The notes: generated by a model not told the origin, from the sequence alone. Shown: positions 5,071 through 47,434, counted from the first letter of the stretch. The stretch: DNA of 64,000 nucleotides from Bacteroidaceae bacterium (GCA_017503645.1 JAFVSR010000062.1:1415-65414); one strand, 5' to 3'. Numbers and translations: made by a program.

Positions 5071-5094
5071 ATATAATAGGGAAATAAGATACAT

Positions 5095-8341: not shown

Positions 8342-8519
8342 AACATTTTTTAATGAAATTTCTTGCTACCTGTTTATAACTAAACGGCAAATGCTGAAAA
8401 GCAATCTTTTTTTTTCGTATCTTCGCAAAATAAATTGGGTATAAAAGATGTTGTCGTGAAAAACCGCAAAGGAGCCGACACACAGATTACCAACAGATTA
8501 ACTCTTGAAAGCAAAAAAG
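8342..8519 (+). repeat. Copy 2 of the ~175-bp direct repeat (native parA promoter plus leader)
   Basis: See copy 1; it ends just before the parA ATG at 8522. Confidence 0.8.
8418..8425 (+). promoter_or_regulatory. Putative -7 promoter box for parAB (TATCTTCG)
   Basis: T-run plus TATCTTCGCA, 96 nt upstream of the parA ATG. Confidence 0.5.
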
Positions 8520-8521
8520 AT

Positions 8522-9289
8522 ATGGGAAAGATAATAGCACTTGCCAACCAAAAAGGTGGTGTGGGCAAGACAACCACAGCAATAAACCTTGCAGCATCGC
8601 TCGCCACATACGAGAAAAAGGTGCTGGTAATAGACGCCGACCCGCAGGCCAATGCCTCATCGGGCCTCGGCATAGATATACGCGAGATTGAATGTTCCAT
8701 CTACGAGTGCCTTATAAACAAGGCCGCAATAACCGACGGCATACACAACACCTGTGTCGAGGGGCTCGACATAATACCCTCGCACATAGACCTTGTGGGT
8801 GCAGAGATTGAGATGCTCGATATGCCTAACCGCGAAAAGATTATGCGCGAGGCATTGGCACCCATAAAGGACAAATACGACTATATACTCATCGACTGCT
8901 CGCCCTCGCTGGGCCTCATCACGGTGAACTCGCTCACCGCGGCCGACTCGGTGATAATACCCGTGCAGTGCGAGTATTTTGCATTGGAGGGTATAAGCAA
9001 GCTGCTGAACACTATAAAAATCATAAAATCGAACCTCAATCCCTCGCTCGACATCGAAGGATTCCTGCTCACAATGTTCAATTCGCGCCTGCGCCTTAGC
9101 AACCAGGTGTACAACGAGGTGAAGAAGCACTTCCGCGAGCTTGTGTTCAACACCGTGATACAGCGCAACATACGACTGGGTGAGGCACCCAGTATGGGTA
9201 TCCCCGTAATAATGTACGATGCCGACTCCACCGGTGCGAAGAACTACCTTGCGCTTGCACAAGAGATAATTAACAGAAACAACGAATAA
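8522..9289 (+). CDS. parA: Chromosome partitioning ATPase ParA/Soj
   Basis: Start at MGKIIALANQKGGVGKTT (deviant Walker A). The ORF-track start at 8435 would translate the leader repeat. Confidence 0.93.
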   Translation: MGKIIALANQKGGVGKTTTAINLAASLATYEKKVLVIDADPQANASSGLGIDIREIECSIYECLINKAAITDGIHNTCVEGLDIIPSHIDLVGAEIEMLDMPNREKIMREALAPIKDKYDYILIDCSPSLGLITVNSLTAADSVIIPVQCEYFALEGISKLLNTIKIIKSNLNPSLDIEGFLLTMFNSRLRLSNQVYNEVKKHFRELVFNTVIQRNIRLGEAPSMGIPVIMYDADSTGAKNYLALAQEIINRNNE

Positions 9290-26977: not shown

Positions 26978-27358
26978 ATGAACCATCCATTTGAATTGCT
27001 ATCCACAATCACTGCACAGCCGGCAAACAAAGAGTTCGGCCGGCCAATAGCACAAGCTATGCAGGCCGCGTTCGGCAGCAAGGCAAGCGAAGAGGAATAC
27101 ACCGCCGCAGGCATCATATGCGCGCTCTTCCTCTCGGCCATTCTTGCAGAATTTTCCACAATCAAAATGCACACATACGTGAAGAACTACCGCGATGGCA
27201 ACAAACCCTTCTCATTCGACTGCAAAAGCTACGACAAGATAGCCGACAACATAAACTGCTATCGATTGTTGTTGATAGACAAGGATATGCAATACATAGA
27301 ACGCGAAATCACAAAACAGGATTTATTGGAATCTTTAGATTTTTTCACTAATCGTTAA
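26978..27358 (+). CDS. Hypothetical protein (126 aa)
   Basis: ORF preceded by a promoter-like box. One hydrophobic segment (AAGIICALFLSAILAEF). I recognise no family. Confidence 0.55.
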   Translation: MNHPFELLSTITAQPANKEFGRPIAQAMQAAFGSKASEEEYTAAGIICALFLSAILAEFSTIKMHTYVKNYRDGNKPFSFDCKSYDKIADNINCYRLLLIDKDMQYIEREITKQDLLESLDFFTNR

Positions 27359-27402
27359 CACGCAGCCAAATAGAAAAATTTTGCATAATCAAAGAAAATG
27401 AT

Positions 27403-27410
27403 TATGTTTG
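27403..27410 (+). promoter_or_regulatory. Putative -7 promoter box (TATGTTTG)
   Basis: Exact TAnnTTTG match 48 nt upstream of the ATG at 27459. Confidence 0.35.
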
Positions 27411-27458
27411 CACGATTATACATTTTGCTCACCAACTCAGATACAAACCCATAACACA

Positions 27459-28406
27459 ATGAAAAAGATTTTTTATTTCCTCTTACCATTGACAATCATT
27501 GCTACATCCATCTGCTCTTGCAGCAGCGATGACAGCAGTTACAATCCATATTTTCATCAAGAGAAAAGCCCCTTCTACCCCAATGAGATAAGAATAGAAA
27601 AGCAGAGCGGTAAAAGGGATATATCGGAAAAATGGACATTCGAGTACAACACCGATAGAACCATAAGCGCATATACCCACGAAACTACCACAAAGCAGCA
27701 GAAGGAGGGATACGTAGAAACCACCGTGGAAAAAGAGAGCGGCAACCTCTCCTATTACAACAACGGCAACATTGTAAATGTAATAAGCGCCGAAAAGGAG
27801 ATATTCGGGTACGACTATCAGAAATACAGCAAGGAGAGAATCATTGAAAATGTACAGTGCGTCGAGGGGCGTATCACAGCCATTGAGCGTATGATTGACA
27901 GCTATAACAAGGATGGCGTGAAAACAAGCTCTACCACCACAAACAGAACCTTCGAATATGCAGGTGAACATTGCGTGGCAAGCATATATACCGACTGGGA
28001 CAATGCCGCAGGACACATCACCCACACATATACATACAACTGGGATGGCGATTGCAGGCTCGCAAGCATCGACATAGACGAAAAGGGCGGCGATTCAAGA
28101 ACCCGCAAGACGTATAACTATACTTATGGCAAGTTGGGTACCAACCACGTGTTCCAGGCAAACGCCTTTTTGTACAACCATATGCCACAAATATATGCCG
28201 CTATGGGATATATGGGCAAGGATTGTCCTTACACACTGTACCGGGAAGAGCAGGTGTTCAAACTGTTTATCGATGGCAGATGGGAGGTGGACAACTCTGC
28301 CGACAACAAGATATTCACACTCATAAACAATGGCACCGACGAATTCAAGTACGACATTTCATCGGACATATACAGCACAAACTACGATATAAAGTTCATT
28401 AAGTAG
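27459..28406 (+). CDS. Hypothetical lipoprotein
   Basis: Start at MKKIFYFLLPLTIIATSICSCSS (lipobox-type Cys). The ORF-track TTG start at 27408 is less likely. Repetitive Y/T/N-rich beta-type sequence. Confidence 0.75.
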   Translation: MKKIFYFLLPLTIIATSICSCSSDDSSYNPYFHQEKSPFYPNEIRIEKQSGKRDISEKWTFEYNTDRTISAYTHETTTKQQKEGYVETTVEKESGNLSYYNNGNIVNVISAEKEIFGYDYQKYSKERIIENVQCVEGRITAIERMIDSYNKDGVKTSSTTTNRTFEYAGEHCVASIYTDWDNAAGHITHTYTYNWDGDCRLASIDIDEKGGDSRTRKTYNYTYGKLGTNHVFQANAFLYNHMPQIYAAMGYMGKDCPYTLYREEQVFKLFIDGRWEVDNSADNKIFTLINNGTDEFKYDISSDIYSTNYDIKFIK

Positions 28407-28411
28407 AACAT

Positions 28412-29056
28412 ATGAGTAAAAAATATAAAGACCGCAGCGATGCCGACATCATAGGTGAGCTCACAAGCAACAACCCCGATGCCGGCCTGGTCGATTATTT
28501 CTTCTTTGATTTGTGCAAAAAGTTGCTTAAGGACATCTCAAAAGTCACACGCAACGACGAAAATTACAGAGCACTTATAGGTGAATTCTACGAATACCTG
28601 AGCGAGAATAACTGGAAAGTGTTGCGCCAGTATCAGGGAAGGAACAATGCCACACTTATGTACTACCTGTCATACTGTGCCAACAATCATTTTATGGCTC
28701 TCAAAAACATAAAGAACAAATTCATAGAGAACCCCGATTATGAGTTTGTAGATATATGTGACGAGATAGATGACGAAAAGGAGTTGCTGTGCAAGGCCGT
28801 GGCACAAGCCTATGGTATGCTCAAGGAGAACCATCAAAAAACTCTTGAGTACCTTGTTATTAAAGGACAAAGCACCTTGGAGGCAGCCGACACCCTGTGG
28901 CAATACACCAAGCACAAGGATACCGACTGGCGCACACTGCCCGCAAAGAAGGTACAGGACACGCTTGCAGCAAGCAAAAGGAATGCTTGTAACCAACTTT
29001 TCAACACGACCAACAAGGTTATAGAAAAATTAAGAAACTGCGATATCGCGACTTGA
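28412..29056 (+). CDS. Divergent sigma-70/ECF-like protein (tentative)
   Basis: LIGEFYEYLSENNWKVLRQYQGRNNATLMYYLSYCANNHFMALKNIK resembles sigma region 2. LKENHQKTLEYLVIKGQSTLEAADTLW resembles the region 4 HTH. Lies 5 nt after the lipoprotein gene. Confidence 0.5.
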   Translation: MSKKYKDRSDADIIGELTSNNPDAGLVDYFFFDLCKKLLKDISKVTRNDENYRALIGEFYEYLSENNWKVLRQYQGRNNATLMYYLSYCANNHFMALKNIKNKFIENPDYEFVDICDEIDDEKELLCKAVAQAYGMLKENHQKTLEYLVIKGQSTLEAADTLWQYTKHKDTDWRTLPAKKVQDTLAASKRNACNQLFNTTNKVIEKLRNCDIAT

Positions 29057-29065
29057 CTTACCATA

Positions 29066-29097
29066 AACTAAAAACGGCCATATGGCCGTTTTTAGTT
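29066..29097. terminator. Bidirectional intrinsic terminator
   Basis: Perfect palindrome AACTAAAAACGGCCATATGGCCGTTTTTAGTT between the convergent sigma-like gene and the GT2 gene. Overlaps the GT2 stop. Confidence 0.65.
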
Positions 29098-29902
29098 ATT
29101 CCAAATATTTATCTATTCCGTTCTCAATCCTTATTCTGCCTGTAGCGCTGTTGCTCTCTCTCAATGCTACATTGTGGCTCCAGAGTTCATCGTCGAACTT
29201 GCTTTCGGTTTCTTTGTGCCATATGTGGTACTCTATGCAACTGAATTTTATAGTGCGTTTCTTAACGCCGAAAGCACGGATGCGCGCCGACAAATCGATA
29301 TCTTCGTTTCCATAGCCAACCATATCGCCATCGTATCCGTTAACGGCATAGAGGTCGTCGCGCCAGAATGACATATTGCAACCGCGGTCGAGTTTATACA
29401 AGCGGTACTTGTAGAAATATTTGGTGAGCCAAGGAATGCGTATTGCGTTAAACTTGCGTATGACGCCGCAGGTAAAGGGCGAGAGTTTATAAATCTTGCG
29501 CTGTATGAGTTTTTTTGTAAAAGGCTCGGTGAGTTTTGCACGGGAACCGCTAATGTAATAACCACGCTCGGCGTGACGTATATGGTCCTCAACAAAATGT
29601 GTATCCATAATAATATCTTGCGCTATCTGTATTATATAATCGGATGTACATTTTGCAAAAGCCTTATTGCATATTGTCGCAACACGGAATCCTTTATCCT
29701 CCTGCCACACGTGTATAAGTTTATATGGCAATTGGGGGCGCATTCTGTCAATCAATTGGCGCGTTTCATCGCGAGAGCCATCATCGGCAACAACAACCTC
29801 GTTGGGAAGTATGGTTTGGTTGGCAATGCTCAACAAACAGAGTTCCAGCGCCTGGGGCCAATTGTAGGTGGCAAGTACCACGCTTGTGGTTATGTTTTTC
29901 AT
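29096..29902 (-). CDS. Family 2 glycosyltransferase
   Basis: VVLATYNWPQALELCLLSIANQT, DDGSRDET, and a C-terminal GYGNEDIDL motif. Confidence 0.88.
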   Translation of the reverse strand: MKNITTSVVLATYNWPQALELCLLSIANQTILPNEVVVADDGSRDETRQLIDRMRPQLPYKLIHVWQEDKGFRVATICNKAFAKCTSDYIIQIAQDIIMDTHFVEDHIRHAERGYYISGSRAKLTEPFTKKLIQRKIYKLSPFTCGVIRKFNAIRIPWLTKYFYKYRLYKLDRGCNMSFWRDDLYAVNGYDGDMVGYGNEDIDLSARIRAFGVKKRTIKFSCIEYHIWHKETESKFDDELWSHNVALRESNSATGRIRIENGIDKYLE

Positions 29903-29908
29903 AGTTGT

Positions 29909-31012
29909 TTACTTAAAATTGTTTATAATCTCCACTACCTTGTCGGCATCCTCGATAGAGATTGCCGGACCTATAGGCAGGCTGAGTTCGCGAGCGTGAA
30001 TAGCCTCGGTAATAGGTAACGACATACCATTCCACTCCTTGTAACACTCCTGTTTATGAGGCGGTATGGGGTAATGTATTATTGTCTGCACACCGTTTTC
30101 CTGAAGATAGGCTTGCAGTTCGTCGCGGCGTTCACACAATACAGGGAACTGGTGGAACACATTCTGCTCGACAGGCATTGTAACGGGCATAGCTATAAAA
30201 GGATTCTTTATACCTTTTATATAGCGAGCGGCAATGGCCTTGCGCGCATTGTTCGCATCGACAAGATGACGCAGTTTCACATTGAGCACGGCAGCCTGTA
30301 TCTCGTCGAGACGGCTGTTGCGCCCAGTGTAGTCAAACACATATTTTCTGCTCGAGCCATAATTGGCAAGAGTTCTTACCATCTGGGCGAGTTCACTGTC
30401 ATTGGTTGTTACGGCACCGCCATCGCCCAAAGCGCCAAGATTCTTGCCGGGGTAGAAACTGTGACCGGCCGCATCGCCCAACGAACCTGTGACGCGGCCA
30501 TCGGGCGCCTGGCAACCGTGTGCCTGCGCATTATCCTCTATGAGTTTTAGGTTGTGTTTTTTGCACAAATGGGCTATCTTTTCGGTCCACGCCAAGCGGC
30601 CATAAAGATGCACTATTGTTATGGCGCGCGTACGTGGGGTGATGGCCTCTTCTATGAGGCTGTCATCTATCTGCAACGTATCGATGCTTGGCTCCACCAG
30701 TACAGGCACCAAGCCGTTCTCGGTTATTGCAAGGATAGTTGCTATATATGTATTGGCCGGCACTATAACCTCGTCGCCGGGCTTCATAACACCCATTTCG
30801 ATATAGGCCCTGAAAATCCATATAAGAGCATCGAGACCGTTGGCGCAGCCTATAGTGTGTTTTGTACCTATGAACTGCGAGTAGTTTTTCTCGAACTCCT
30901 CATTTTCGGGACCTTGCAAATACCAGCCGCTCTTCACTACGCGTGCCACAGCCTCGTTTATTTCCGCTTCGTACAAAGCGGTTACATCCTTAAGAGAAAG
31001 AAAAGGTATCAT
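29909..31012 (-). CDS. DegT/DnrJ/EryC1/StrS-family sugar aminotransferase (FdtB/QdtB-like)
   Basis: 367 aa. PLP-lysine context [16 protein letters not shown]. Sits in an operon with an FdtA-like ketoisomerase. Confidence 0.9.
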
Positions 31013-35385: not shown

Positions 35386-36885
35386 TTAAAGTTTTACTTT
35401 ACACTTCACGCCCTTGGACTCGTTCTGCACACGGTCGAGCACCGTAACCACGTATGTTACCTTGCCCTTCTCGTCGGCAGGTATCTTGTAATAGGTGTTG
35501 CGTGTTATCGCTACTATGTTTGCTGCCGAGGAGAGCGATTTCTTTTGCCCCTTCACAAAACGGTACACCACATATTTTGCAGGAGCATTCATCTCATCGT
35601 CACACTCACGTGGGAGCCACACAAGTATCTTTTCACCATTATCCTCTATCAGCTGCACACCCTTCACCTTTTTGGGCGCATCGTCGTCCATAAACGGTAC
35701 AGCAGGCATAAGCGCAGGGTAGCTATGGTAATTTTGAGCAAGGATATCGCGATAGCCGCCTACGTTGTTGGCAGCCGAGGCTGCATCCCACAGGCAAGAA
35801 CCCCCAACCGAGCGATAAGAGCGCTGCATATCCATCTTTTGCACAAGCTGGTGACGTGCCGGGTTCTCGGTATCTTTGGCCTTTACGGTGCGGTTCACAT
35901 CCTGGCCTATGTACAATGGGCGCTTTGCAGCATATTTGGCCCACCACTCCACGAGCGCTTCGTAGTCGGCAGCCTTGTGGCCTATCTCCCAATAGATTTG
36001 CGGGATGCAGTAATCTACCCAGCCCTCGTCTATCCAGTAGAGCACATCGGCATTGAGGTCGTCGTAGCTTTGCAGGCCTTTGGTGCGGCTACCCCACTCC
36101 CAACTACCTTCGTTGCGGTATATTCCAAAGGGCGATACGCCGAATTTAACCCACGGCTTTATTGCGCGCACGGTTTTGTGTATCTGCTCTATGAGCTTGT
36201 TCACATTGCTGCGGCGCCACAATGCCTTGTTTTCGTAGCCACTGGAACGGAACCACTTATCATCGTTAAAAGGCTTGCCATTTACGGGATAGGGGTAGAA
36301 ATAGTCGTCTATGTGCAGGCCATCGACATCGTAGCGGGTGACAATATCGGTTATCACCTTGCATATATGGTCGCGGTTTTCCTGCAACGAGGGGTTAAAG
36401 TAGAGCTGTCCTTCGTACTCTATGAAATTGCCGGGGCGCAAGCGGCTCTGGTGGTTGGCAGCAACTGACGTTGTTCCTTTTGTGCGGGCACGGTATGGGT
36501 TAATCCAGGCGTGCAGTTCCATATTGCGTTTGTGAGCCTCGGCCACCATAAAGGCAAGAGGGTCCCACCCCGGGTTTTTCCCCTGCTGCCCCATCATATA
36601 GCGGCTCCACGGCTCGTAGGGCGAGGGATAGAGCGCGTCGCCCTCAACACGCACTTGGAATATTATGGCGTTCACGTTTACCTTTTGCAAGTTATCGAGC
36701 ATAGTGGTGAGATAACCCTTCATTTCGGCCTCGTTCATTCCCATAAACTGCCCATTGACAGCCTGTATCCAAGCACCGCGAAATTCGCGTTTGGGTGGGA
36801 TATTCTCTTTGGTTTTAACTGAATGCTTACCCGTGGAGCAGGAGAACAGCAGCAAGGCAAGCAGCATTGTGGCAAAAAGTCTCAT
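35386..36885 (-). CDS. Glycoside-hydrolase-family-10-like (GHL10/DUF187) lipoprotein
   Basis: Start at MRLFATMLLALLLFSCS (lipobox). The ORF-track start at 36960 overlaps the kinase gene. TIM-barrel-like body (FRGAWI.., HAWINPYR) and a C-terminal Ig-like tail. Confidence 0.7.
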   Translation of the reverse strand: MRLFATMLLALLLFSCSTGKHSVKTKENIPPKREFRGAWIQAVNGQFMGMNEAEMKGYLTTMLDNLQKVNVNAIIFQVRVEGDALYPSPYEPWSRYMMGQQGKNPGWDPLAFMVAEAHKRNMELHAWINPYRARTKGTTSVAANHQSRLRPGNFIEYEGQLYFNPSLQENRDHICKVITDIVTRYDVDGLHIDDYFYPYPVNGKPFNDDKWFRSSGYENKALWRRSNVNKLIEQIHKTVRAIKPWVKFGVSPFGIYRNEGSWEWGSRTKGLQSYDDLNADVLYWIDEGWVDYCIPQIYWEIGHKAADYEALVEWWAKYAAKRPLYIGQDVNRTVKAKDTENPARHQLVQKMDMQRSYRSVGGSCLWDAASAANNVGGYRDILAQNYHSYPALMPAVPFMDDDAPKKVKGVQLIEDNGEKILVWLPRECDDEMNAPAKYVVYRFVKGQKKSLSSAANIVAITRNTYYKIPADEKGKVTYVVTVLDRVQNESKGVKCKVKL

Positions 36886-36915
36886 TTTCTTGTAGCTGTT
36901 TTTGGAAATACAGCG

Positions 36916-36923
36916 CGAAGATA
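36916..36923 (-). promoter_or_regulatory. Putative -7 promoter box (TATCTTCG) for the GHL10-GNAT pair
   Basis: Minus-strand TATCTTCG 30 nt upstream of the ATG at 36885. Confidence 0.4.
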
Positions 36924-36940
36924 ACACTTTTCCCCTACCG

Positions 36941-38830
36941 CTACAAATCGGTCTCCACAATCTTTACAAAAAGGTCCCACCCATTCGTGTTTTGATACGT
37001 AGCCTTTGCACCGCGCGGTACGTAAAGGGTGCAGTTACCCGCAACGCTGCCGAAAGTACTCCAATCCACCGCAAACAGTTTGTCGGCAGGGATGCGCGAC
37101 ACAATCTTTGTGAGTTTGCCGCAGCCGTCGAACGCAAAAACGCCTATCGAGGCAACACTCTCTCCTATTGTTACCGTTGTGAGATTAGGACAGTAGTCAA
37201 AAGCCCAAGCACCTATGTAGGTAACCTTGTCGGGGATTACCAGCGTGCTGTAACCACAATTCGACAACGCAGCCTCACCTATGTAGGTTACGTTTTCGGG
37301 AATATCTATCTCTATTAGTTTCTCGCACCACTGGAAGGCGTAATCACCAATATGCGTAAGCCCCTGTGGCAATTTTATTCTATAGAAGGGGCAATGGTGG
37401 AATGCATAATCGCCAATATATGTAACACTCTCGGGAATATCGATGCTGCCCAGTCTGAACTGTCCGGCAAATGCGTGGTCTGCTATTTTTGTGATTCCCT
37501 GCGGTATTTTGCTGGTGCAGCAACCGGCAATGAGCGTGTTTGTCGCAGTCTCTATTATAGCGTTGCACCCCTCGCGGCTGTCGTAATAGGGATTGGCTGC
37601 ATCTACCACAACCCTCTCTATATATATACAATTATCCAATATTCCATAGCCTATCCATTTAACGCTCGCGGGTATAAACAAGGTACCCTCAAAAGGGTTG
37701 CGCGACAATGCAAAATTGCCTATGCTGTCTATTCCGTTTTCTATCTTAATGGACCTTATGATGTTTACACTCAAGGCATCTTCGGCAAAGGCGGTTACTT
37801 TGAGGGTGCGCCCGCGATGTGTAACCTGGGCGGGAAATACAACGTCACCTGTGTATTCATCTTTATATTCATTGTAATCTTTCCCCTTGTAGGTAATTTC
37901 CACGGTGCGTGCATCGTGGTCGGTTATGCGGTAGAACACGCCGTTTTCTTCAAATTTCTCGGAAATCTGCCCGGTTTCCCATGCAATATAGTCGCAAATG
38001 CTTTCATACGCAGGAGAACATATAAAGCCTATGGCAGCTACAATAATGGCTACCACAAAAGCAGCAATGCGCAGCAAGGAGCGCAACCGGCGGTACTTTA
38101 TTTCGTTAATAACAACATCGGCTGTGGAATATCGTTTCTCTTTTTGCGGCTGCAGGCAACGCTCTTTTATTCTACGCAGATAATGAGGCAAGGGCAGCTT
38201 TCTCGCTTTTTCAATCTCTGCAATCAGTGCCCCCACCTCGTATAAATCGGTAGAAGCATCTATTTGGTCTATCAGTTTGCTTTTCAACTCGGGTGCCACA
38301 TTCTCTCCCGGCGTGTATCCTGCCGTCTTTCTATAAGACGACTCTATACAGAATCCCAAGTCTATAATCTTTACATTGTTGTTTATTTGGCACAGAATTA
38401 TATTCTTTGGAGTAATATCCAAGTGAGCGATGTTGTTGCTGTGCAGGCACTTTAAGCCTTCGAGCAACTGCACAATAAATTTATCAACATTCTCGTCGTT
38501 GTCGAAGAACACAGGTTCCTCTTCGAGTTTCTTCTGCAAGGTAGTTCCGTGCACATACTCCATAAGTATGTAGAGCCCCTTTCCATCCTCTCCCATGCTC
38601 ACATATTGCGGGATATAACAGCAGTTCATAGACTTGCCAATCTCAAACTCCTTGTTGAATATCAGCCTGTAGTTGAGGTCGTTGCTATATTGGCTGCGCA
38701 GGCGTTTCATAAAATAGGCCTTCCCTTTTATATGCACTATGTATGCCTCGCAGGTGCCACCCTCGCTGTCGAGACGCTCTATTTTATCAAACTTTATATC
38801 CTCATCCAAGAATTCCGAATATTCCACCAT
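36941..38830 (-). CDS. Transmembrane Hanks-type Ser/Thr protein kinase with C-terminal BspA-type leucine-rich-repeat ectodomain
   Basis: Kinase subdomains: YFMKRL (Lys), HLDITPKN, DLG, APE, DLYEVG. One TM helix (IAAFVVAIIVAAIGFICS). About 300 aa of I-P-x-V-T-x-IG-x-x-AF-x-x-C repeats. Confidence 0.85.
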   Translation of the reverse strand: MVEYSEFLDEDIKFDKIERLDSEGGTCEAYIVHIKGKAYFMKRLRSQYSNDLNYRLIFNKEFEIGKSMNCCYIPQYVSMGEDGKGLYILMEYVHGTTLQKKLEEEPVFFDNDENVDKFIVQLLEGLKCLHSNNIAHLDITPKNIILCQINNNVKIIDLGFCIESSYRKTAGYTPGENVAPELKSKLIDQIDASTDLYEVGALIAEIEKARKLPLPHYLRRIKERCLQPQKEKRYSTADVVINEIKYRRLRSLLRIAAFVVAIIVAAIGFICSPAYESICDYIAWETGQISEKFEENGVFYRITDHDARTVEITYKGKDYNEYKDEYTGDVVFPAQVTHRGRTLKVTAFAEDALSVNIIRSIKIENGIDSIGNFALSRNPFEGTLFIPASVKWIGYGILDNCIYIERVVVDAANPYYDSREGCNAIIETATNTLIAGCCTSKIPQGITKIADHAFAGQFRLGSIDIPESVTYIGDYAFHHCPFYRIKLPQGLTHIGDYAFQWCEKLIEIDIPENVTYIGEAALSNCGYSTLVIPDKVTYIGAWAFDYCPNLTTVTIGESVASIGVFAFDGCGKLTKIVSRIPADKLFAVDWSTFGSVAGNCTLYVPRGAKATYQNTNGWDLFVKIVETDL

Positions 38831-38831
38831 C

Positions 38832-39434
38832 TTAATCTATGCTTAAAGTATTTGTCAAAACTCTGAATTTCACACCACCATTTTGCCCGCAAACATAGCG
38901 TATGGGCGCACCCCCTTCGTGCACAAGGCAACTAAGGTATAGCGGCTCGCCCTGTGTTATCACATCCACATGAAAGGTATCCCCCTTGCTCAACTTGCTG
39001 TTTATGCTATTTACAACCTTGAACATATCGTAACCAAGAAACTCCACCGTTACAAAGCGTTGCGGCAACCACGAGAGTTCAATCTGCTGCCCCTTTTTGA
39101 GCGCACTCGTGGGGATATAATCATTTAGCAAAAATCGGCTACCTGGAGGGATGAGCTCGCCGGCACGTTCTTTATGAAACTGCTCATAGTTATTATAGCC
39201 TGTGTATTGTGCCAGCGTGTCTATGGTGAAACGGCGAGGTATGGTATTGTATTTCCCATCGGCAAGGTTGCCCCAAAAGCGGCGCAGTGTCATGGGGCTC
39301 AGGTAAGAGCCGGTCCTGTCGAGTATGCGCATAGACAGATATTCGTAATCGCGCTTGGTTGCCACTTTGCGCCCAAGCAACGCCTCTATGGCGTTTTTCA
39401 AAGCCTCGTAATTCCCTCTGTTATTGTTTTCCAT
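38832..39434 (-). CDS. Hypothetical protein, possible N-terminal HTH, translationally coupled to the kinase
   Basis: Start taken at MENNNRGNY; the longer ORF to 39554 looks non-coding. The stop is separated from the kinase ATG by 1 nt (TAA-G-ATG). The segments SPMTLRRFWG and TIDTLAQYTGYNNYEQF look HTH-like. Confidence 0.6.
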   Translation of the reverse strand: MENNNRGNYEALKNAIEALLGRKVATKRDYEYLSMRILDRTGSYLSPMTLRRFWGNLADGKYNTIPRRFTIDTLAQYTGYNNYEQFHKERAGELIPPGSRFLLNDYIPTSALKKGQQIELSWLPQRFVTVEFLGYDMFKVVNSINSKLSKGDTFHVDVITQGEPLYLSCLVHEGGAPIRYVCGQNGGVKFRVLTNTLSID

Positions 39435-39542
39435 ACTGCAAATGTATAAAACAAAACCGCACCTACGAAATAATTCTTGCACCAATCCGCCACTGCCCCG
39501 CAAAAGAAACGCAATGAAACGCTTTTCCTCGCCACAAGAAGT

Positions 39543-39550
39543 TAATTTTG
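39543..39550 (+). promoter_or_regulatory. Putative -7 promoter box (TAATTTTG) for the large LRR gene
   Basis: Exact TAnnTTTG match 99 nt upstream of the ATG at 39650. Confidence 0.4.
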
Positions 39551-39649
39551 CCAAAAATTATTGCGCCTTGCTATGCACCGCAGTTATCAAGGCAATATAC
39601 CGGGGATTTATCCCCTAATGGTAAAAACAACTATAATAAATAATATATT

Positions 39650-42600
39650 ATGAAACACAATTACATTAAAAACATGCTCACAGCCCTGCTATTGCTGTGC
39701 AGCACCGTGGCAAGTGCCCAAATAGTAGGCGTTGGTGATATAAGTTATAAAATCTTCAGAGAACCTACATCTACAGTAAGGGGTGCTGCATATGTTTATC
39801 GTTGTTCTATGGATGCTGTATCGCCTAAGATAGTAAGTAAGATTACTTATTACTCCAAAGAATATGATGTTACATATATTGGTGAAAGTGCATTCGCCGG
39901 TTGTACTAAAATGACGCACATTAGCATACCTAATCATATCAGCAGTATAAAAGATTTTGCTTTTAAGAATTGTACCAGTCTTAAAAGCATAGAAATAATT
40001 GATCTTGGAGCTGTGGGCAGTGGAGTGTTCTGTGGATGTTCAAGTCTCGAAAATATAACAGGATACGATAACGAGAAGTTTTCTTTTGATGGTAATTGTA
40101 TAGTAAATGTTAAGACCAATACCCTTTTGGTTGGATGTAAAAATACTGTAATTCCAAGTAGTGTAACAAGTATTGCTTCACTTGCATATGCAAATGGTCC
40201 TCAAAATGTAATAATTCCTAAACGCATTGTAAGTATAGGAGGTGGTGCCTTTGCTTGTTCGGGTGTGGGAAGTATAGTAGTTGAGGAAGGGCACCCTGTC
40301 TATGATAGCCGCAATGATTGCAATGCAGTAATACATACAGAAACGAACGAAATTGTTTCCGGATGCAATAATACTGTAATTCCTAACAGTGTTACTTCGA
40401 TTGCCAGTTATGCTTTCTACGATTGTGATGAGATTGAAAGTATTGAGATTCCTAAAGGTGTTACTTCAATTGGTTCTTCTGCTTTTGCTGCTTGTGGTAC
40501 GCTTAATAGTGTAATAATCCCATCTTCTGTTTTGTTTATGGGCAACAGCTCGCTGCCTAATAACCTTCCTAAGGTTATATTCTTGGGAAATACTCCGCCA
40601 AAAGAAAGTTCTTCAAGCAAAATATACAAGCCTTCAGCCAGTAGAATTTATGTATCAAACGCCTCTGTCTATGGCTATGGTATTGAGTATCCCCAATTAA
40701 GTTCTTTGTTTGAGGTAAATGGTGTAAAGTATGTTATTAAAAGCGCTGCAGACAGAACCTGCGATGTAATTGATTGTGCTTATGATGAAACTGCTGCCAA
40801 TATTGTAATTGACAGTGTGGTTACATACAGAAACATAAAATTGACTGTAAAGAATGTGGAACCTTATGCCTTATACAAAAACAATCATGTGAAGAGTGCT
40901 TTTGTGAATAACGATGGCTATGTAGGCAACAACGCTTTTTATCAGTGTACCGGAATTAATTCCGACGTTGTGGTGAAAAATAATGGTTATGTGGGTGCAC
41001 GCGCATTTGAAGGTTCCACACTCACCGGTTTGAATATTTCAAATAATGGTTATATAGGCAATTATGCCTTCTACGACTGCCCTAAGATGAATTCCGGGGT
41101 TACGGTAAGTAATAAGGGTTATGTAGGTGAATATGCATTCAGCAAATCTACGCTCACGGGTTTGCATGTTTCAAGTGCCGGTGAAATAAGGACATCGGCC
41201 TTCCAAGGGTGTACCGCTATTGTTGATGCCGATATTTCAAATACCGGTTATATAGGTACATCGGCTTTCCAAGGGTGCACCGCTTTGACAACGCTCAATT
41301 TTGGCAATAATGTGGGCGAGTTCAAAAATCAGGCATTCCGCGATTGTACATCATTGCCCAATATTGTAATCCCCGATTTTACACCTTCTGTTGGAGCTTC
41401 CTGTTTCCAAAATTGCAGTTCACTTGTGTCGGCCGTCGTTGGTGAATCTGTAAAAAGATTAGAGGAGAGCGTCTTTCAGAACTGTTCATCTTTGACCGAT
41501 GTTTCAATAGGTGTGAGTGTTGATTCTATCAAAGAAAAGGCATTCTCCGGTTGTACTTCGTTGCCCAAAATTAAATTGCCTCAGAATGTTATTGCAATTT
41601 CCGACTCTGTTTTTTATGCTTGCAACAGCCTTAAAACAGTAATATTCGATGATGGCATCACAAACGATTCTATATCCTTGGGTAGCAATGGTGAAAGTCC
41701 AATGTTCAGCAGCTGTCCGCTCGATTCGGTATATATAGGTAGGAAATTGTCATATAAACAAGGTTCGAACAGAGGATATTCGCCATTCTATGCAAATAAG
41801 CATTTAAGAAGCGTTACATATAATGATAATGAGGTGGCGGTTTACCCCAAGGAGTATATGAACTGCAGCAATTTGCAGAATGTGCTAATTGGAGCCGGAA
41901 TAAATGTTATTGATGATGAAGCCTTCCAAAACTGTACCTCGTTGCCAACAATTCTTATTCCAAACACAGTAAATAAGTCTTTGGGCGCAAGCTCTTTTAA
42001 AAACTGTTCAGCACTCTACAAAGCAGTTATAGGCGATAGTGTGGCATCTATTGGACAAAGTGCATTTGAAAGTTGTGTTTCTCTTGTCGATGTGAAGGTG
42101 GGTGCAAGAGTCTCCGATATATATGCATCAGCCTTTAAGAATTGTAGTTCGTTGCCGCAGATAACAATTCCGCAAGCAACCAATAGCATAAAAGACTATG
42201 TATTCGATGATTGTGCGAAGCTTAAATACTTCTTCTTGGAAGATGGCCCCAATACCATTTCTCTTGGAAAAAATGCCGCAAGCGCATCAACAACTGTCAT
42301 AGGTTCTGAATGTCCATTATTCTATGACTGCGCCCTCGATTCGATATACCTTGGCCGAAACCTCTCTTACAGCCTCAAATTGGAAGATGGTTATTCGCCC
42401 TTCTATTTCAATAAAACATTGCGTGCTGTGGTTATAGGCAACATGGTTGATTCTGTGTTTGAAAATGAATTCTATCAATGCCGCAAACTTGAATATGTTT
42501 CGGTGGGCGACGGTGTTACCGCGGTAGGTAACTGGGCATTCAGTAGTTGTATAAGCCTCGATCACTTCTCGTTCGGTACGGGCCTTGAAACAATAGGCAA

Positions 42601-44290
42601 AGAGGCTTTCAGCGACTGTACCTCGATTACTAAGATAGTAAGCAGCCGCAATGTTCCGCCTGTTTGTGGCGACCAGGCACTCGCCGATATAAATGTATGG
42701 GATTGTACGCTTTATGTTCCCGAGGATTATATTGAAACCTATTGGGCTGCCCCGCAATGGCAAGACTTCTTCTTTGTTGAAGGTGCCGAGTATAATCTAA
42801 AGTTTATTGTAGACGGTGCGGTTTACAATGAAAGCGTAGTAAAATACAATGCCGAGATTACACTACCTGCCGACCCCGTGAAGGAGGGCTACACATTCCT
42901 GGGCTGGTCTTTTGATGATGGCAAGAATGCATGGAACAGCATGGATATTGCAAGCAACGCCAACACAATGCTCTACACCAATGCCCCTTGCACAACAACT
43001 GCATACGGCGACCAATTTGTGAGCTGGAACGTGTTGTTCGATGGCGACGCCAATACAATATTCCACTCGGAGTATGGTAACAAACAAACAGCCGACAGCC
43101 TAGACCACTACTTGCGCGTAGATATGGGCGAAAGGAACAAGGTAGGCAAGTTTAGCTTTACCTATACCACACGCAACTTGGAGAACAACAATAACACGGC
43201 ACCAAAGACAATGGTTGTGGAAGGTTCTAATGTGGCCGACGGTGAATACACCGAGATAGCAACTCTTAGCAATCTGCCGGGAACAAAAGCAACTGTTTAT
43301 ACTTCGGGTGAGTTGGGTGATGACAACAATCCCTTCCGCTATATCCGTTACAGAGTAACAGAGACTCATAGTAATTACAAGGATAATAATCACCCTTACT
43401 TTTCAATTGCAGAGTTCGGCATGCCGTCTGCAAATCTCATTTACGTAATTCCTTCGAGAATGCCTGCCGATGACACTGAATTATATGCAATATTCAAAGC
43501 GAATGACTATACCGTCAAATACATTGTCAATGGCGAGGAGTATTACAGCGAGACCGTAGCTTGTGATGCCGAAATTGTACCCATTGAGGCTCCCGAAAAA
43601 GAAGGCTACACATTCAACCGTTGGGAGGGATTGCCTGAAACTATGCCTGCAGGTAATATTGAGGTTACAGCTGTTTACGACAAGATTCCAACAGAGATAA
43701 CAATAACCATAAACAAATATGGTTCTGCAACATTCTCATCCCCCTATGCGCTCGACTTCAGCGAAGTTAGCGGATTGACAGCATATGCAGCAACAGGATA
43801 TAACACCAATACAGGAATAATAACAATGACTATGGTGAACACGGCTAAAGAGGGTGTAGGCCTATTCTTGAAAGGTGCGCCAAATACCACTTACGTCGTT
43901 CCTATTATGGATGAAACAGGTGATAATACACAGAACCTCATGGTTGGAGTTTTGACAAAAACGACAGTTAATCAGAAAACAGACGATGGTATGTACGTAA
44001 ACTTTAAGTACACGGTAGCCGGCGGTAGCACAACACCAATGTTCTATCGTTACAGCGATGGTTCAAGCGTTTCTGCCGGCAAGGCATATTTGCAATTGCC
44101 TTTGAGTTGGTTGCCTTCAGATGCTTCATTCGCAATAGGTATAAGATTTGAAGATGGTTTCGCAACAGGTATCGACGAAGTGGAAGCCAAGGAAGATGAT
44201 GTTATCTATTACGACCTCAATGGTCGCCGTGTGCAAGAGCCTGTCAAAGGTGTCGTTTATATAGTAAATGGTAAAAAGGTAATATTTTAA
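39650..44290 (+). CDS. Giant BspA-type leucine-rich-repeat surface protein with Listeria-Bacteroides (Flg_new) repeats, F5/8-type-C (discoidin)-like domain and T9SS-type C-terminal tail
   Basis: 1546 aa. Signal peptide ..CSTVASAQ. About 1000 aa of LRR_5-type repeats. EGYTFLGWS / EGYTFNRWEG repeats. LRVDMG..FRYIRYRVTE discoidin-like segment. Tail DVIYYDLNGRRVQEPVKGVVYIVNGKKVIF. Confidence 0.9.
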   Translation: MKHNYIKNMLTALLLLCSTVASAQIVGVGDISYKIFREPTSTVRGAAYVYRCSMDAVSPKIVSKITYYSKEYDVTYIGESAFAGCTKMTHISIPNHISSIKDFAFKNCTSLKSIEIIDLGAVGSGVFCGCSSLENITGYDNEKFSFDGNCIVNVKTNTLLVGCKNTVIPSSVTSIASLAYANGPQNVIIPKRIVSIGGGAFACSGVGSIVVEEGHPVYDSRNDCNAVIHTETNEIVSGCNNTVIPNSVTSIASYAFYDCDEIESIEIPKGVTSIGSSAFAACGTLNSVIIPSSVLFMGNSSLPNNLPKVIFLGNTPPKESSSSKIYKPSASRIYVSNASVYGYGIEYPQLSSLFEVNGVKYVIKSAADRTCDVIDCAYDETAANIVIDSVVTYRNIKLTVKNVEPYALYKNNHVKSAFVNNDGYVGNNAFYQCTGINSDVVVKNNGYVGARAFEGSTLTGLNISNNGYIGNYAFYDCPKMNSGVTVSNKGYVGEYAFSKSTLTGLHVSSAGEIRTSAFQGCTAIVDADISNTGYIGTSAFQGCTALTTLNFGNNVGEFKNQAFRDCTSLPNIVIPDFTPSVGASCFQNCSSLVSAVVGESVKRLEESVFQNCSSLTDVSIGVSVDSIKEKAFSGCTSLPKIKLPQNVIAISDSVFYACNSLKTVIFDDGITNDSISLGSNGESPMFSSCPLDSVYIGRKLSYKQGSNRGYSPFYANKHLRSVTYNDNEVAVYPKEYMNCSNLQNVLIGAGINVIDDEAFQNCTSLPTILIPNTVNKSLGASSFKNCSALYKAVIGDSVASIGQSAFESCVSLVDVKVGARVSDIYASAFKNCSSLPQITIPQATNSIKDYVFDDCAKLKYFFLEDGPNTISLGKNAASASTTVIGSECPLFYDCALDSIYLGRNLSYSLKLEDGYSPFYFNKTLRAVVIGNMVDSVFENEFYQCRKLEYVSVGDGVTAVGNWAFSSCISLDHFSFGTGLETIGKEAFSDCTSITKIVSSRNVPPVCGDQALADINVWDCTLYVPEDYIETYWAAPQWQDFFFVEGAEYNLKFIVDGAVYNESVVKYNAEITLPADPVKEGYTFLGWSFDDGKNAWNSMDIASNANTMLYTNAPCTTTAYGDQFVSWNVLFDGDANTIFHSEYGNKQTADSLDHYLRVDMGERNKVGKFSFTYTTRNLENNNNTAPKTMVVEGSNVADGEYTEIATLSNLPGTKATVYTSGELGDDNNPFRYIRYRVTETHSNYKDNNHPYFSIAEFGMPSANLIYVIPSRMPADDTELYAIFKANDYTVKYIVNGEEYYSETVACDAEIVPIEAPEKEGYTFNRWEGLPETMPAGNIEVTAVYDKIPTEITITINKYGSATFSSPYALDFSEVSGLTAYAATGYNTNTGIITMTMVNTAKEGVGLFLKGAPNTTYVVPIMDETGDNTQNLMVGVLTKTTVNQKTDDGMYVNFKYTVAGGSTTPMFYRYSDGSSVSAGKAYLQLPLSWLPSDASFAIGIRFEDGFATGIDEVEAKEDDVIYYDLNGRRVQEPVKGVVYIVNGKKVIF
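41336..41827 (+). repeat. Internal ~165-aa LRR super-module, copy 1 (within the giant LRR gene)
   Basis: FRDCTSLPNIVIP...GYSPFYANKHLRSVTYND is collinear with copy 2 at the protein level. Confidence 0.6.
41924..42442 (+). repeat. Internal ~170-aa LRR super-module, copy 2
   Basis: FQNCTSLPTILIP...GYSPFYFNKTLRAVVIGN is collinear with copy 1. Confidence 0.6.
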
Positions 44291-44307
44291 ATAAAAAGTA
44301 ATAAATT

Positions 44308-44490
44308 ATGAAAAAGAACTATTTGGAACCCGAAACTGAGTATGTTAAATTGGTTGTAGGCCCCATAATGCAGATTGTTGAAGGCTCTACATGGACCGGT
44401 ACCGGAACAGGTGATGGTGAAGTAGGTGATGAAACCGAGGAGCTTTCCAATAGAAGAAATGGTGAATGGGGCAATCTTTGGAAAAAATAA
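44308..44490 (+). CDS. Small acidic hypothetical protein (60 aa), co-transcribed with the LRR gene
   Basis: ATG 17 nt after the LRR stop in an A-rich context. It lies upstream of the only terminator hairpin of the unit. I recognise no family, so coding status is uncertain. Confidence 0.45.
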   Translation: MKKNYLEPETEYVKLVVGPIMQIVEGSTWTGTGTGDGEVGDETEELSNRRNGEWGNLWKK

Positions 44491-44509
44491 GATGTAGATT
44501 TTTTCATTC

Positions 44510-44546
44510 GACCCCGGGTGGCGTTCGCGCCGGCCGGGGTCTTTTT
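44510..44546 (+). terminator. Intrinsic terminator of the LRR / micro-ORF transcript
   Basis: GACCCCGG..(GGCG-TTCG-CGCC)..CCGGGGTC nested hairpin followed by TTTTT. Confidence 0.7.
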
Positions 44547-44618
44547 GCATTAGCACCACTGCGCGCCACTATATACACTATTTTTTGTTAAAGGGGTACA
44601 ACCTTTCCGTTTTTTATG

Positions 44619-44626
44619 TATTTTCG
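44619..44626 (+). promoter_or_regulatory. Putative -7 promoter box (TATTTTCG) for uvrA
   Basis: TAnnTTCG variant 24 nt upstream of the ATG at 44651. It lies inside the longer TTG-initiated ORF, which argues for the 44651 start. Confidence 0.4.
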
Positions 44627-44650
44627 CGAGATATTATTAAAGAAGATGCA

Positions 44651-47434
44651 ATGGAGGGAAAATTCATTACAATAAAGGGCGCGCGTGTAAACAACCTGAA
44701 GAATGTGGATGTGGAGATACCACGCGGGAAGTTGGTGGTTATAACCGGCCTTTCGGGCTCGGGAAAATCCTCCCTTGCCTTCGATACACTATATGCCGAA
44801 GGACAGCGCCGCTATGTAGAGTCGCTCAGCTCATACGCCCGACAGTTTCTGGGGCAGATGAACAAGCCCGAGTGCGATTTCATAAAAGGGATACCCCCTG
44901 CCATTGCCATAGAGCAGAAGGTGAACAACCGCAACCCGCGCTCCACGGTGGGCACCAGCACCGAGATTTACGAATACCTGAAACTGCTGTATGCACGAGT
45001 GGGAAAAACCTACTCGCCCGTGAGTGGCAGACAGGTAAAGAAAGACAGCCCTGAGGACCTTGTTGCCTGTATGCAAAGCCGCCCCGATGGCACCCGTTTT
45101 ATGCTGCTTGCCCCCATACCCAAGCGAAAGGGGCGCGATATGCAGGAGCAGCTGTCGATATATTTGCAGCAGGGCTTCACACGCATATATCTTAACGGAG
45201 AGGTAGTGCGCATTGAGGAGTACACCCCCAAGAAAGGTGACAAGCCTGCGTTGCTCATAGACCGCCTCTCGGTTTCTAATTCACAAGAGACAATATCCCG
45301 TCTGCTCGACTCGGCCGAAACAGCCTTCTACGAAGGCAACGGCACCTGCATTCTGCAATTTGTAGGCGAGGAGGGGCAGCACACCTTCAGCACCCGTTTC
45401 GAGGCCGACGGCATTGAGTTCGAGGAGCCCACAGAGCAGCTCTTCTCGTTCAACTCGCCCATTGGCGCCTGCCCCGACTGCGAGGGATTCGGGCGCATTG
45501 TGGGAATAGACGAGAACCTTGTAGTGCCCAACAAATCGTTGAGCATATACGACGGCGCGGTATTCTGCTGGCGCGGCGAGAAGATGGGCGAGTGGAAAAA
45601 GGAGTTCTGCAAGCACGCCACAAAAGACGACTTCCCTATCTTTGAACCATACTACAACCTCACACAGGAACAAAAAGACTACCTATGGCACAAGGGGCCC
45701 TGGATTGAGGAGTACCAGGAGAGCATCTGCATTGACAATTTCTTCAAGATGGTGCAGGCCAACCAATACAAGATACAATACCGCGTGATGCTTGCACGCT
45801 ACCGCGGAAAGCCCATCTGCCCCACCTGCCACGGCACACGCCTCAAGAAAGAGGCCACATATGTGAAGGTGGGTGGCGCAAGCATCACCGAACTGATAGA
45901 GATGCCAATTGACCGTTTGAAGATATTCTTCGACAATCTGCAACTCGACGAGCAGGACAGCACCATTGCAGCGCGCATACTCACCGAGATAAAGAGCCGC
46001 ATAGAGTGCCTTTGCGATGTGGGGCTCAGCTATCTCACACTAAACCGCTTGAGCAACACCCTGTCAGGCGGAGAGAGCCAGCGCATAAACCTTGTAACCT
46101 CGCTTGGCAGCGCCCTTGTGGGCTCGCTGTATATACTCGACGAGCCCAGCATTGGCCTGCACAGCCGCGACACGGAACGCCTTATAAAAGTACTCTATCG
46201 CTTGCGCGACCTCGGTAACACCGTGGTGGTGGTGGAGCACGACGAGGAGATAATACGCGCAGCCGACTACATAATAGATGTGGGCCCAAAGGCAGGCTCA
46301 TACGGCGGTAACATTGTGTATAAAGGCAATATGAGCGACTTGGCCCCGGGCAGCAACAGCTACACTGTGAAATATCTGCTGGGCGAGGAGACCATAGACA
46401 CCCCCACCCACCGCCGCAAGTGGAACAACAGCATACTTATAAAAGGAGCCCGCGAGAACAACCTCAAAGGAATAGATGTAAAGATACCGCTTAACGTACT
46501 CACCGTGGTGAGCGGCGTAAGCGGCTCGGGCAAATCGACGCTTGTACGCGACATTCTCTACCGCTCACTAAAACGACACTTTGGCGAGGTGACCGACGCA
46601 CCCGGACAATGCGAAGCCGTTGAAGGCTCGCTGTCGCAGATTACAGGAGTGGAGTTTGTGGACCAGAACCCAATAGGAAAATCGTCGCGCTCGAACGCCG
46701 TGACATACCTTAAGGTATATGACGACATACGCCACCTGTTTGCACAGCAACCGCTTGCCAAGCAGTTGGGATTTGGTGCAGGCCATTTCTCGTTCAATGC
46801 CGACGGAGGCCGTTGCGAGGAGTGCAAGGGCGAGGGAGTGATAACCGTGTCTATGCAGTTTATGGCCGACCTGCAGCTGGTGTGCGAGGCCTGCCACGGC
46901 AAGCGTTTCAAGAAGGAGGTGCTCGATGTGAAATTCCAGGGCAAGAGCATACACGATATATTGGAAATGACCGTGGGCGATGCCATCAACTTTTTCCAGG
47001 AACACGGAGAGAAGCGCATTGCCGAAAACCTGCAACCGCTGCAGGATGTGGGGCTTGCCTACATAAAGCTGGGGCAGTCGTCATCTACCCTGTCGGGCGG
47101 AGAGAACCAGCGCGTGAAGCTCGCCTACTACCTGAGCCGACAAACCGACAAGCCCACCCTATTCATATTCGACGAGCCCACCACAGGCCTCCATTTCCAC
47201 GACATAAAGAAACTGCTAAACTCATTTGAGCGCCTCATAGCCCGCGGTCACTCGCTTGTGATAATAGAGCACAATATGGACATAATAAAATGTGCCGACC
47301 ACATAATAGACTTGGGCCCCGAGGGAGGCGAGAACGGTGGCGAGCTCATTGCAGCAGGCACCCCCGAGGAGGTTGCAGCCTGCCCTGCATCGCACACAGG
47401 GCAGTTCCTTAAAGAGAAACTAAAGCAAGATTAA
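44651..47434 (+). CDS. uvrA: Excinuclease ABC subunit A
   Basis: Start at [18 protein letters not shown]. Two ABC modules ([20 protein letters not shown]). CxxC zinc modules ([32 protein letters not shown]). Confidence 0.96.

Follow-up and report, generated by a model that had tools for sequence, protein, structure and literature searches.

The closest characterized analogue of the locus described here appears to be PknH–EmbR (PMC9239209, PMC8636726), the pairing of a receptor Ser/Thr kinase and its cognate transcription factor in Mycobacterium tuberculosis. Our locus lies at positions 36941-44546 of a 64,000-nucleotide (nt) stretch of DNA from a gut Bacteroidaceae bacterium (GCA_017503645.1 JAFVSR010000062.1:1415-65414; the whole stretch is called the window). 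On the minus strand it encodes a 200-amino-acid (aa) protein, the partner, and a 629-aa membrane Ser/Thr kinase with leucine-rich repeats (LRRs) of the LRR_5 type; divergently from this pair lie genes for a 1546-aa secreted LRR protein, the cargo, and for a 60-aa acidic protein. We propose that the kinase phosphorylates the partner, which would be a transcription factor activating the divergent promoter, and we hold this reading with slightly more confidence than doubt.

Like PknH, the kinase has an N-terminal cytoplasmic Hanks domain, one transmembrane (TM) helix, and a C-terminal extracytoplasmic sensor, and the role proposed for the partner, that of a dedicated transcription regulator controlling cell-envelope genes, is that of EmbR. 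In contrast to PknH–EmbR, the sensor is an LRR_5 solenoid, the partner has neither SARP nor FHA and belongs to no known family, and the setting is Bacteroidota, with several paralogous cassettes per genome, a conserved repeat as the proposed operator, and a phased bidirectional promoter. The analogy is supported indirectly, by the adjacency of the two genes, the repeat, its spacings, and the co-variation described below. The locus thus appears to fit a known theme, a receptor kinase with a dedicated regulator, and what would be new is the type of sensor, the regulator family, and the architecture of the operator.

Other described systems share single aspects of the locus. The PASTA kinases PknB, PrkC, and StkP have the same membrane topology and a close fold (1mru_A, TM-score 0.73), and their conserved activation-loop Thr has counterparts here in T169 and T173; unlike them, our kinase carries LRR_5 in place of PASTA repeats, is non-RD, has no adjacent PP2C phosphatase, and is associated one-to-one with a dedicated partner instead of many substrates. 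In class II activation of the PhoB/OmpR type, two direct repeats one helical turn apart are located in the -35 region, and the activator is phosphorylated by a membrane sensor kinase. The tandem repeat of our locus has the promoter geometry of such a pho box, but receiver domain, winged helix, and histidine kinase are absent and the phosphodonor would be a Ser/Thr kinase. With plant and oomycete LRR receptor-like kinases (PMC10390575), the locus has a concept in common: a Ser/Thr kinase joined by a single TM helix to a ligand-binding LRR domain. An earlier note on this DNA, made from the sequence alone, saw the plant layout mirrored here; the order is in fact reversed (kinase aa 16-235, TM helix aa 252-270, LRRs aa 290-629), the LRRs are of the BspA/LRR_5 type and closest to pneumococcal PcpA, the sensor is periplasmic, and homology is limited to the generic kinase fold. 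The cargo, finally, is a secreted multi-repeat LRR_5 protein like BspA of Tannerella forsythia and related surface proteins (PMC5445135, PMC11169705), from which it differs in that no type IX secretion system (T9SS) C-terminal domain reached threshold, in extra Listeria–Bacteroides repeats, and in the 60-aa gene that follows.

Our literature search found no description of bacterial LRR_5 kinases or of the partner family, and none, for Bacteroidota, of a one-to-one receptor Ser/Thr kinase–regulator pair. Signaling in Bacteroidota is usually described in terms of hybrid two-component systems, extracytoplasmic function (ECF) sigma/anti-sigma pairs, and SusR-like regulators, and we know of no receptor Ser/Thr kinase paired one-to-one with a regulator in this phylum. 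The NCBI records of the four products (MBR2416255 to MBR2416258, from a Bacteroidaceae metagenome-assembled genome, or MAG) carry only the names "leucine-rich repeat protein" or "hypothetical protein," so that the locus is indeed uncharacterized, as the earlier note had it, in both source annotation and literature. The evidence presented here is computational throughout. The features that carry the argument, some of them identified as open reading frames (ORFs), are the following:

36941-38830, minus strand: membrane Ser/Thr kinase, 629 aa (ORF list and Pfam)
38126-38785, minus strand: Hanks kinase domain, aa 16-235 (Pfam Pkinase)
38021-38077, minus strand: TM helix, aa 252-270 (sole hydrophobic segment)
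aa 290-629 of the kinase, minus strand: periplasmic LRR_5 domain (Pfam LRR_5)
38832-39434, minus strand: partner protein, 200 aa counted from the conserved ATG at 39434 (ORF list)
39439-39446, minus strand: candidate -7 box TACATTTG of the partner–kinase operon (fits the TAnnTTTG consensus)
39504-39521, minus strand: tandem direct repeat CGTTTCATT-GCGTTTCTT with a 10-bp period, putative partner operator (conservation across loci)
39543-39550, plus strand: candidate -7 box TAATTTTG of the divergent (cargo) promoter (22 nt from the repeat)

The partner and kinase genes are one nucleotide apart, with the junction TAA-G-ATG read on the minus strand, and a 215-bp gap separates the partner from the divergent 1546-aa gene, both as first described. 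In the ORF list the partner ORF is longer, 240 aa at 38832-39554 on the minus strand, and the conserved start is the ATG at 39434. The kinase–LRR fusion has more than 120 full-length relatives, down to 42% identity, and 148 relatives in GTDB species representatives. For a survey of gene neighborhoods we fetched 80 loci (designated by L numbers), called their ORFs, and searched them with profiles built for this analysis; nearly all are from MAGs of the guts of herbivores, including ruminants, and at least two loci each come from 14 of the assemblies. Among the 78 kinases with enough upstream DNA for the partner to be looked for, it is directly upstream on the same strand in 68 and downstream in convergent orientation in 5; when two of the five misses are counted as artefacts of ORF-start calling, the partner adjoins the kinase in about 75 of the 78 loci. 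When a metagenome scan was seeded with the partner instead, the kinase gene came after it in 12/12 loci with room for it; the kinase also follows a partner of only 35% identity. That metagenome scan, made with a partner alignment (A1), returned close relatives from one sample only, plus four spurious distant matches, and a wider alignment (A4) was too divergent to be used for a locus scan. Flanking genes vary from one locus to another. The partner–kinase pair is thus the tightly conserved core of the cassette, in agreement with the coupling suggested by the earlier note. The larger set of four co-occurring genes envisaged there is not obligate: only 21 of 61 loci have a divergent LRR gene at most 3 kb from the partner, and about 10 have the 60-aa gene.

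Some loci depart from the usual arrangement. L074 contains a second, more divergent pair, a 413-aa kinase relative without a detectable LRR domain (288-1529, minus strand), divergently transcribed from a partner-like gene (1575-2165, plus strand; E 8e-30), which suggests that kinases of other architectures, too, have partners from this family. Where the partner is flipped, in the subfamily of L072, L074, L059, and L077, the kinase always comes after the same conserved gene, about 200 nt upstream, whose protein ends ...KVPCKVRPSDKLYK...; this is a fixed place in the chromosome, unlike the variable contexts of other cassettes. Truncated kinase ORFs of 239-294 aa stand beside an intact partner in L036, L062, and L065, and split ones are present in L015 and L076; these could be pseudogenes, assembly errors, or kinase-only variants. 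All cassettes are from Bacteroidales except that of L061 (JAZOOD010000020.1), whose MAG is labelled "Clostridia bacterium" and whose contig is probably mis-binned.

The region between the divergent genes is organized around the tandem repeat. In the window, the repeat at 39504-39521 is single-copy, and it was also recovered by independent repeat finding. Across the loci, a 9-mer repeat with at least 8/9 matches is present in 46 of 66, always with a 10-bp period, compared with 8.7% in shuffles and 12.6% in other upstream regions. The strict repeat pattern has 34 matches in 2.68 Mb, of which 30 are upstream of a partner gene and oriented with it. The core of the repeat differs between lineages (GTTTC, GGTTC, [AG]GTCC, and GGTAC) and also between paralogous cassettes of one genome, such as L010 with GTTTC and L041 with AGTCC; in loci with a flipped partner the repeat is kept and has still other cores, among them GTATC and GGTGC.

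Promoters of Bacteroides have the -7 consensus TAnnTTTG (PMC4747536, PMC8748976), and boxes fitting it are found on both sides of the repeat. The distance from the repeat to the -7 box of the partner is 74-76 nt in 33 of 48 loci, and the remaining spacings of 62-64, 53-54, and 84-86 nt represent steps of one helical turn, indicating helical phasing. The distance to the partner ATG is variable, 12 to 86 nt; in the window, the -7 box ends 4 nt before the ATG, and the partner–kinase mRNA would therefore be nearly leaderless. On the other side, a -7 box lies 22-23 nt from the repeat in 20 of the 42 loci with a divergent neighbor, and in a relaxed test TTTG occurred at offset 26/27 in 35 of 51 loci and at any other offset in at most 4. 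This spacing is independent of whether the divergent gene encodes an LRR protein. With the divergent -7 box 22 nt away, the repeat is at about -35 to -55 of the cargo promoter, where class II activators have their sites, the pho box being an example. A sigma-70 promoter scan was uninformative, as expected for Bacteroidota, and Rfam gave no match over 36700-44800.

Several smaller observations concern the same region and the repeat. The four strict repeat matches away from partner genes, in L076 (5258, plus strand), L082 (3126, minus), L041 (4092, minus), and L049 (7426, plus), precede an Fe-ADH gene, two ATPase genes, and one gene of no assigned function; these genes are uninformative, and the matches could be extra regulon members, remnants, or chance. 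On either side of the direct repeat and the divergent -7 box are the arms of a 14-nt inverted repeat (39466-39479 and 39552-39565), which are 72 nt apart and 86% complementary. AATTATT occurs in each arm and is conserved on the partner side in the closest loci. The inverted repeat could have arisen by chance or be a second operator; a typical invertible promoter would need a longer segment. A palindrome, GGGGATTTATCCCC, is located at 39602-39615 in the predicted 5' leader of the cargo (about 90 nt) and has no Rfam match.

One residue of the partner varies together with the repeat. Residue 48, at the start of helix 3 and inside the motif S-P-x-T-L-[KR]-R-F-W, is Thr in 12/12 partners of cassettes with an [AG]GTCC core and in 1/29 others, in statistics that ignore phylogeny. 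Mutual information over all partner columns is confounded by relatedness, and we used residue 48 only, because there the GTCC class is polyphyletic: on a neighbor-joining tree it forms at least 3-4 separate lineages, L024 of this class being nested among GGTTC-class relatives with Ile or Met at the position. A recognition helix and its operator would be expected to co-vary in this way.

A profile search places the partner in a large family of 3214 clusters (at 50% identity) at E 1e-3 or better, nearly all of 180-205 aa. Its AlphaFold2 (AF2) model has a mean predicted local distance difference test score (pLDDT) of 81 and consists of five helices (aa 2-90), a disordered linker (aa 94-101), and a beta-barrel (aa 106-193); the N-terminal helices carry the invariant motif S-P-x-T-L-[KR]-R-F-W-G and the flexible linker a conserved Ser99. 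The partner had been introduced as "HTH-like," after the helix-turn-helix (HTH) fold. It matched nothing in Pfam and NCBIfam even at E up to 10, nothing in PDB by sequence profile, and nothing at E 1e-3 or better in Foldseek searches of PDB and BFVD, while Pfam gave no meaningful match for 51 diverse members of the family. In hhalign, comparison with five XRE HTH sequences gave a probability of 0.3%. Since neither an HTH nor any other known fold was found, the term is unverified as a fold assignment.

The same results bear on a different role for the partner, as an adaptor, scaffold, or regulator of the kinase, with another protein binding the repeat. The lack of a recognized HTH or DNA-binding fold would fit this, as would the C-terminal beta-barrel, whose Sm/SH3-like resemblances are only weak. 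We nevertheless regard it as unlikely: the repeat stays with the partner gene also where the latter no longer adjoins the 5' end of the kinase gene, the cores differ between paralogous cassettes of one genome, residue 48 of the partner tracks one base of the core, and the partner is the only cassette-specific cytoplasmic protein besides the kinase.

By profile and fold, the 629-aa protein is a Hanks-type kinase. Pkinase (PF00069) matches with 85.4 bits (cut-off 31.7), and in Foldseek the kinase lobe of the AF2 model (pLDDT 89.6) matches PknB, ASK1, and PDK1 at E about 1e-11 to 1e-10 with TM-scores, normalized to the target, of 0.62-0.78, those of PknB (1mru_A) and ASK1 being about 0.73-0.78. 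The ectodomain is a BspA-type LRR (LRR_5) domain by profile (149.9 bits, cut-off 27.7) and by its solenoid fold, with the LRR protein PcpA (4cp6) as the best structural match. Four Lys or Arg residues precede the TM helix and none follows it, the means over the 79 kinases of the fetched loci, which also underlie the residue counts below, being 4.1 and 1.5. The kinase domain is therefore assigned to the cytoplasm and the LRR domain to the periplasm, and the predicted topology, a single TM helix with the LRR side not cytoplasmic, stands. The ectodomain is turned outward, as proposed earlier, in that it is outside the inner membrane, but in a Gram-negative cell this means the periplasm and not the cell surface.

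The kinase is an atypical, non-RD member of the Hanks group. The Arg of the HRD motif is present in 0/79 relatives, the Lys of the catalytic loop (D-x-K-x-x-N) is replaced by Thr in the window protein and by Ser, Thr, or Asn in 48/79, and the Gly-rich loop is degenerate, reading G-[AGS]-T in place of the canonical GxGxxG. These departures are what a pseudokinase or non-protein kinase would show, in which case the protein would be a ligand-gated membrane tether that holds and releases the partner in an anti-sigma-like manner, without phosphotransfer. We consider this quite unlikely given the conservation of the remaining site: the ATP-binding Lys and Glu (K42, E61) are kept in 78/79 relatives, and the catalytic Asp and Asn (D138, N143), the DLG Asp (D157, with G159), the APE motif (P180, E181), and the structural Asp and Arg (D195, R233) in 79/79. 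In an alignment of diverse relatives these residues, with D157-L-G and A-P-E (179-181), were invariant as well. A dead kinase would not be expected to keep them in this way, and the canonical D-x-K-x-x-N is retained in 30/79. The kinase domain called complete in the earlier note is accordingly complete in its catalytic residues but not in the HRD Arg, the catalytic-loop Lys, or the Gly-rich loop, while the intact ATP site is borne out by K42 and E61, the confidence of the model, and the PknB-like fold.

Taken together, these features suggest how a phosphorylation pathway from kinase to partner to promoter could operate. The partner–kinase operon and the bidirectional control region would form a self-contained signaling unit. 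The kinase would sit in the inner membrane with its Hanks domain in the cytoplasm and its LRR_5 domain binding a ligand in the periplasm, and ligand binding would change kinase activity. The 200-aa partner would then be phosphorylated, candidate sites being Ser99 in the linker, Thr49, and Thr70. The partner, whose family is unannotated, would bind DNA sequence-specifically, at the tandem repeat, through the helix with the S-P-x-T-L-[KR]-R-F-W motif. The location of the repeat at -35 to -55 of the divergent promoter and its phasing to the partner's own -7 box, about 75 nt downstream, suggest that the partner, once bound and phosphorylated, would activate, rather than repress, the divergent gene and would tune its own operon. 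The output here would be the 1546-aa BspA-like secreted protein and a co-transcribed 60-aa protein; elsewhere, the same control cassette would drive unrelated genes.

A broader reading, to which we give a little less than even weight, is that Bacteroidales of herbivore guts have paralogous, mutually insulated pairs of a periplasmic-LRR receptor kinase and a transcription factor of unrecognized DNA-binding fold, each with its own operator variant and a variable divergent output, often a giant surface protein. That these pairs work like two-component systems built from different parts is a suggestion we make with similar reserve.

A number of findings weigh against the proposed pathway. No tool (Pfam, NCBIfam, PDB profile, Foldseek, or hhalign) recognized a DNA-binding fold in the partner. 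The catalytic-loop Lys is absent from the window kinase and from 49/79 relatives and the Gly-rich loop is degenerate, so that kinase activity or substrate class could be atypical, and no PP2C phosphatase gene was seen among the flanking genes inspected. A clear divergent -7 box at the fixed spacing is missing in about a third of the loci, and some of the divergent neighbors are housekeeping genes, for example fumarase. The co-variation at residue 48 is uncorrected for phylogeny and has one exception (L082).

If the proposal is correct, the kinase would represent a new sensor class, a bacterial LRR receptor kinase, and the partner a large unannotated DNA-binding family, with its 3214 clusters at 50% identity and no Pfam model. 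The correspondence between helix residue 48 and one operator base would be a specificity code, of use in regulon prediction and in building orthogonal switches for gut anaerobes. The pathway would also explain the regulation of some BspA-like surface proteins, which is relevant to adhesion and host interaction. In the window, the putative output consists of the following features:

39650-44290, plus strand: secreted BspA-like LRR protein (cargo), 1546 aa (ORF list and Pfam)
44308-44490, plus strand: micro-ORF, 60-aa acidic protein (ORF list; conserved relatives)
44510-44546, plus strand: intrinsic terminator of the cargo and micro-ORF transcription unit (read from the sequence)

The cargo (MBR2416257.1, "leucine-rich repeat protein") has a signal peptide ending ...TVASA/QI, LRR_5 matches totalling 421 bits in 8 stretches (cut-off 27.7), and matches to the Listeria–Bacteroides repeat families Flg_new and Flg_new_2. 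Two further domains attributed to it earlier were not recovered: the discoidin-like domain reaches 20.2 bits with F5_F8_type_C_2, below the cut-off of 27.8, and for the T9SS-type tail the sorting-domain profiles (TIGR04183 type A, type B, and type C) have no match in the last 129 or 79 aa, the C-terminal region matching no typed domain. Among the homologous cargo tails, 3/10 give sub-threshold sorting-domain scores (L051, 13 bits; L084, 15.6 bits, cut-off 23; L072, type C, 13.7 bits). The cargo of L109 is split into 85 aa and 1459 aa (about 6850-7110), which we rejected as a frameshift or phase variation, the cause being a run of N from scaffolding.

With LRR_5 repeats and a similar peptide stretch in both proteins, the earlier note suggested that the sensing domain of the kinase is paralogous to the adjacent LRR surface protein and that the kinase could monitor this protein, its secretion, or its ligand. 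LRR genes are also far more common beside the pair (21/61) than among the genes of the loci in general, where 33 of the 881 genes of at least 150 aa are LRR ORFs and most of these 33 are the adjacent ones. When ectodomains were compared with cargos, however, the locus's own cargo came first in only 2/27 loci, and that of the window ranked 23rd of 31, with 31% identity over 166 aa; on this ground we rejected a locus-specific kinship and, with it, the notion that the ectodomain is a paralogue of the neighboring cargo. The shared stretch is present in both proteins, as reported, but it is an invariant of the kinase ectodomains across the family, with N413, Y416, D417, S418, and R419 unchanged whatever the neighbor, and indicates no special kinship. 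An LRR neighbor is absent in two thirds of the loci, where the divergent gene may encode a Zn-ribbon protein, a Sel1-repeat protein, DUF6175, an uncharacterized protein, or a housekeeping function, and these non-LRR neighbors have no family in common. The ectodomain is conserved to the same degree as the catalytic domain while neighbors and presumed outputs vary. This makes the neighboring cargo an unlikely object of monitoring by the kinase and an unlikely ligand; the ligand of the LRR sensor is likely to be conserved across the family. We thus judge monitoring of the cargo to be improbable. The other half of the earlier idea, signaling through the partner to the divergent gene, fits the conserved promoter architecture that links this gene to the pair.

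The locus was also noted to be AT-rich. Its G+C content is 0.38-0.46 over 38-45 kb, compared with 0.51-0.55 in the flanks. Values as low as in the cassette (0.42-0.45) occur elsewhere in the window, at 5000-9000 and 27000-30000, and low G+C is thus not unique to this locus. A low-G+C block with a small regulator-like gene 1 nt upstream of a kinase gene could suggest a defence or toxin–antitoxin-like pair, comparable with HipBA or PD-T4-6, to which the LRR gene would be an unrelated neighbor, and the PADLOC models for PD-T4-6, Stk2, and mad6 do match the kinase domain with E 5e-25 to 1e-19. These matches cover the catalytic domain only and are no better than that of Pfam Pkinase (5e-24), and the partner, the cargo, and the micro-ORF have no PADLOC match, so that the kinase-based anti-phage systems PD-T4-6, Stk2, and MADS were rejected. 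HipBA, a soluble HipA-fold kinase with an XRE antitoxin, was rejected as well, since the protein is of the Hanks fold, is membrane-bound through its TM helix, and has a conserved sensor in the periplasm, and its partner is not recognizable as XRE. As the phased divergent promoter moreover points to gene regulation, a defence function seems highly improbable. Compared with a kinase acting through a DNA-binding partner, each of the four alternatives considered agrees less well with the invariance of the catalytic residues, the co-variation, and the repeat and its phasing.

The 60-aa acidic ORF and the terminator were both found downstream of the cargo gene as originally described. The terminator is a hairpin, GACCCCGG...CCGGGGTC, with an 8-bp G+C stem followed by TTTTT, and ends at 44546. 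Conservation marks the micro-ORF as a real gene: 13 relatives occur in the loci, and there is a cluster of 19 members; Pfam and further searches gave no match to known families. The proteins have an N-terminal MKKxYxxP, an acidic or Gly-rich middle, and a C-terminal RGEWGNLW(K) that is nearly invariant as RG[ED]WGN[LIV]W; the protein of the window has a net charge of about -4. The gene directly follows the cargo in L004, L006, L007, L046, L051, L063, L083, and L095, and in about 8 to 10 loci overall, and it is probably co-transcribed with the cargo. Its product could be a peptide precursor or modulator; more speculatively, the RGEWGNLW protein might be a peptide ligand or modulator of the LRR sensor, which would close a feedback loop. 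Further members of the family are found in L041 (1161-1337) and L089 (2149-2307), and L008 has two tandem copies (6739-6909 and 7155-7310) without an LRR cargo.

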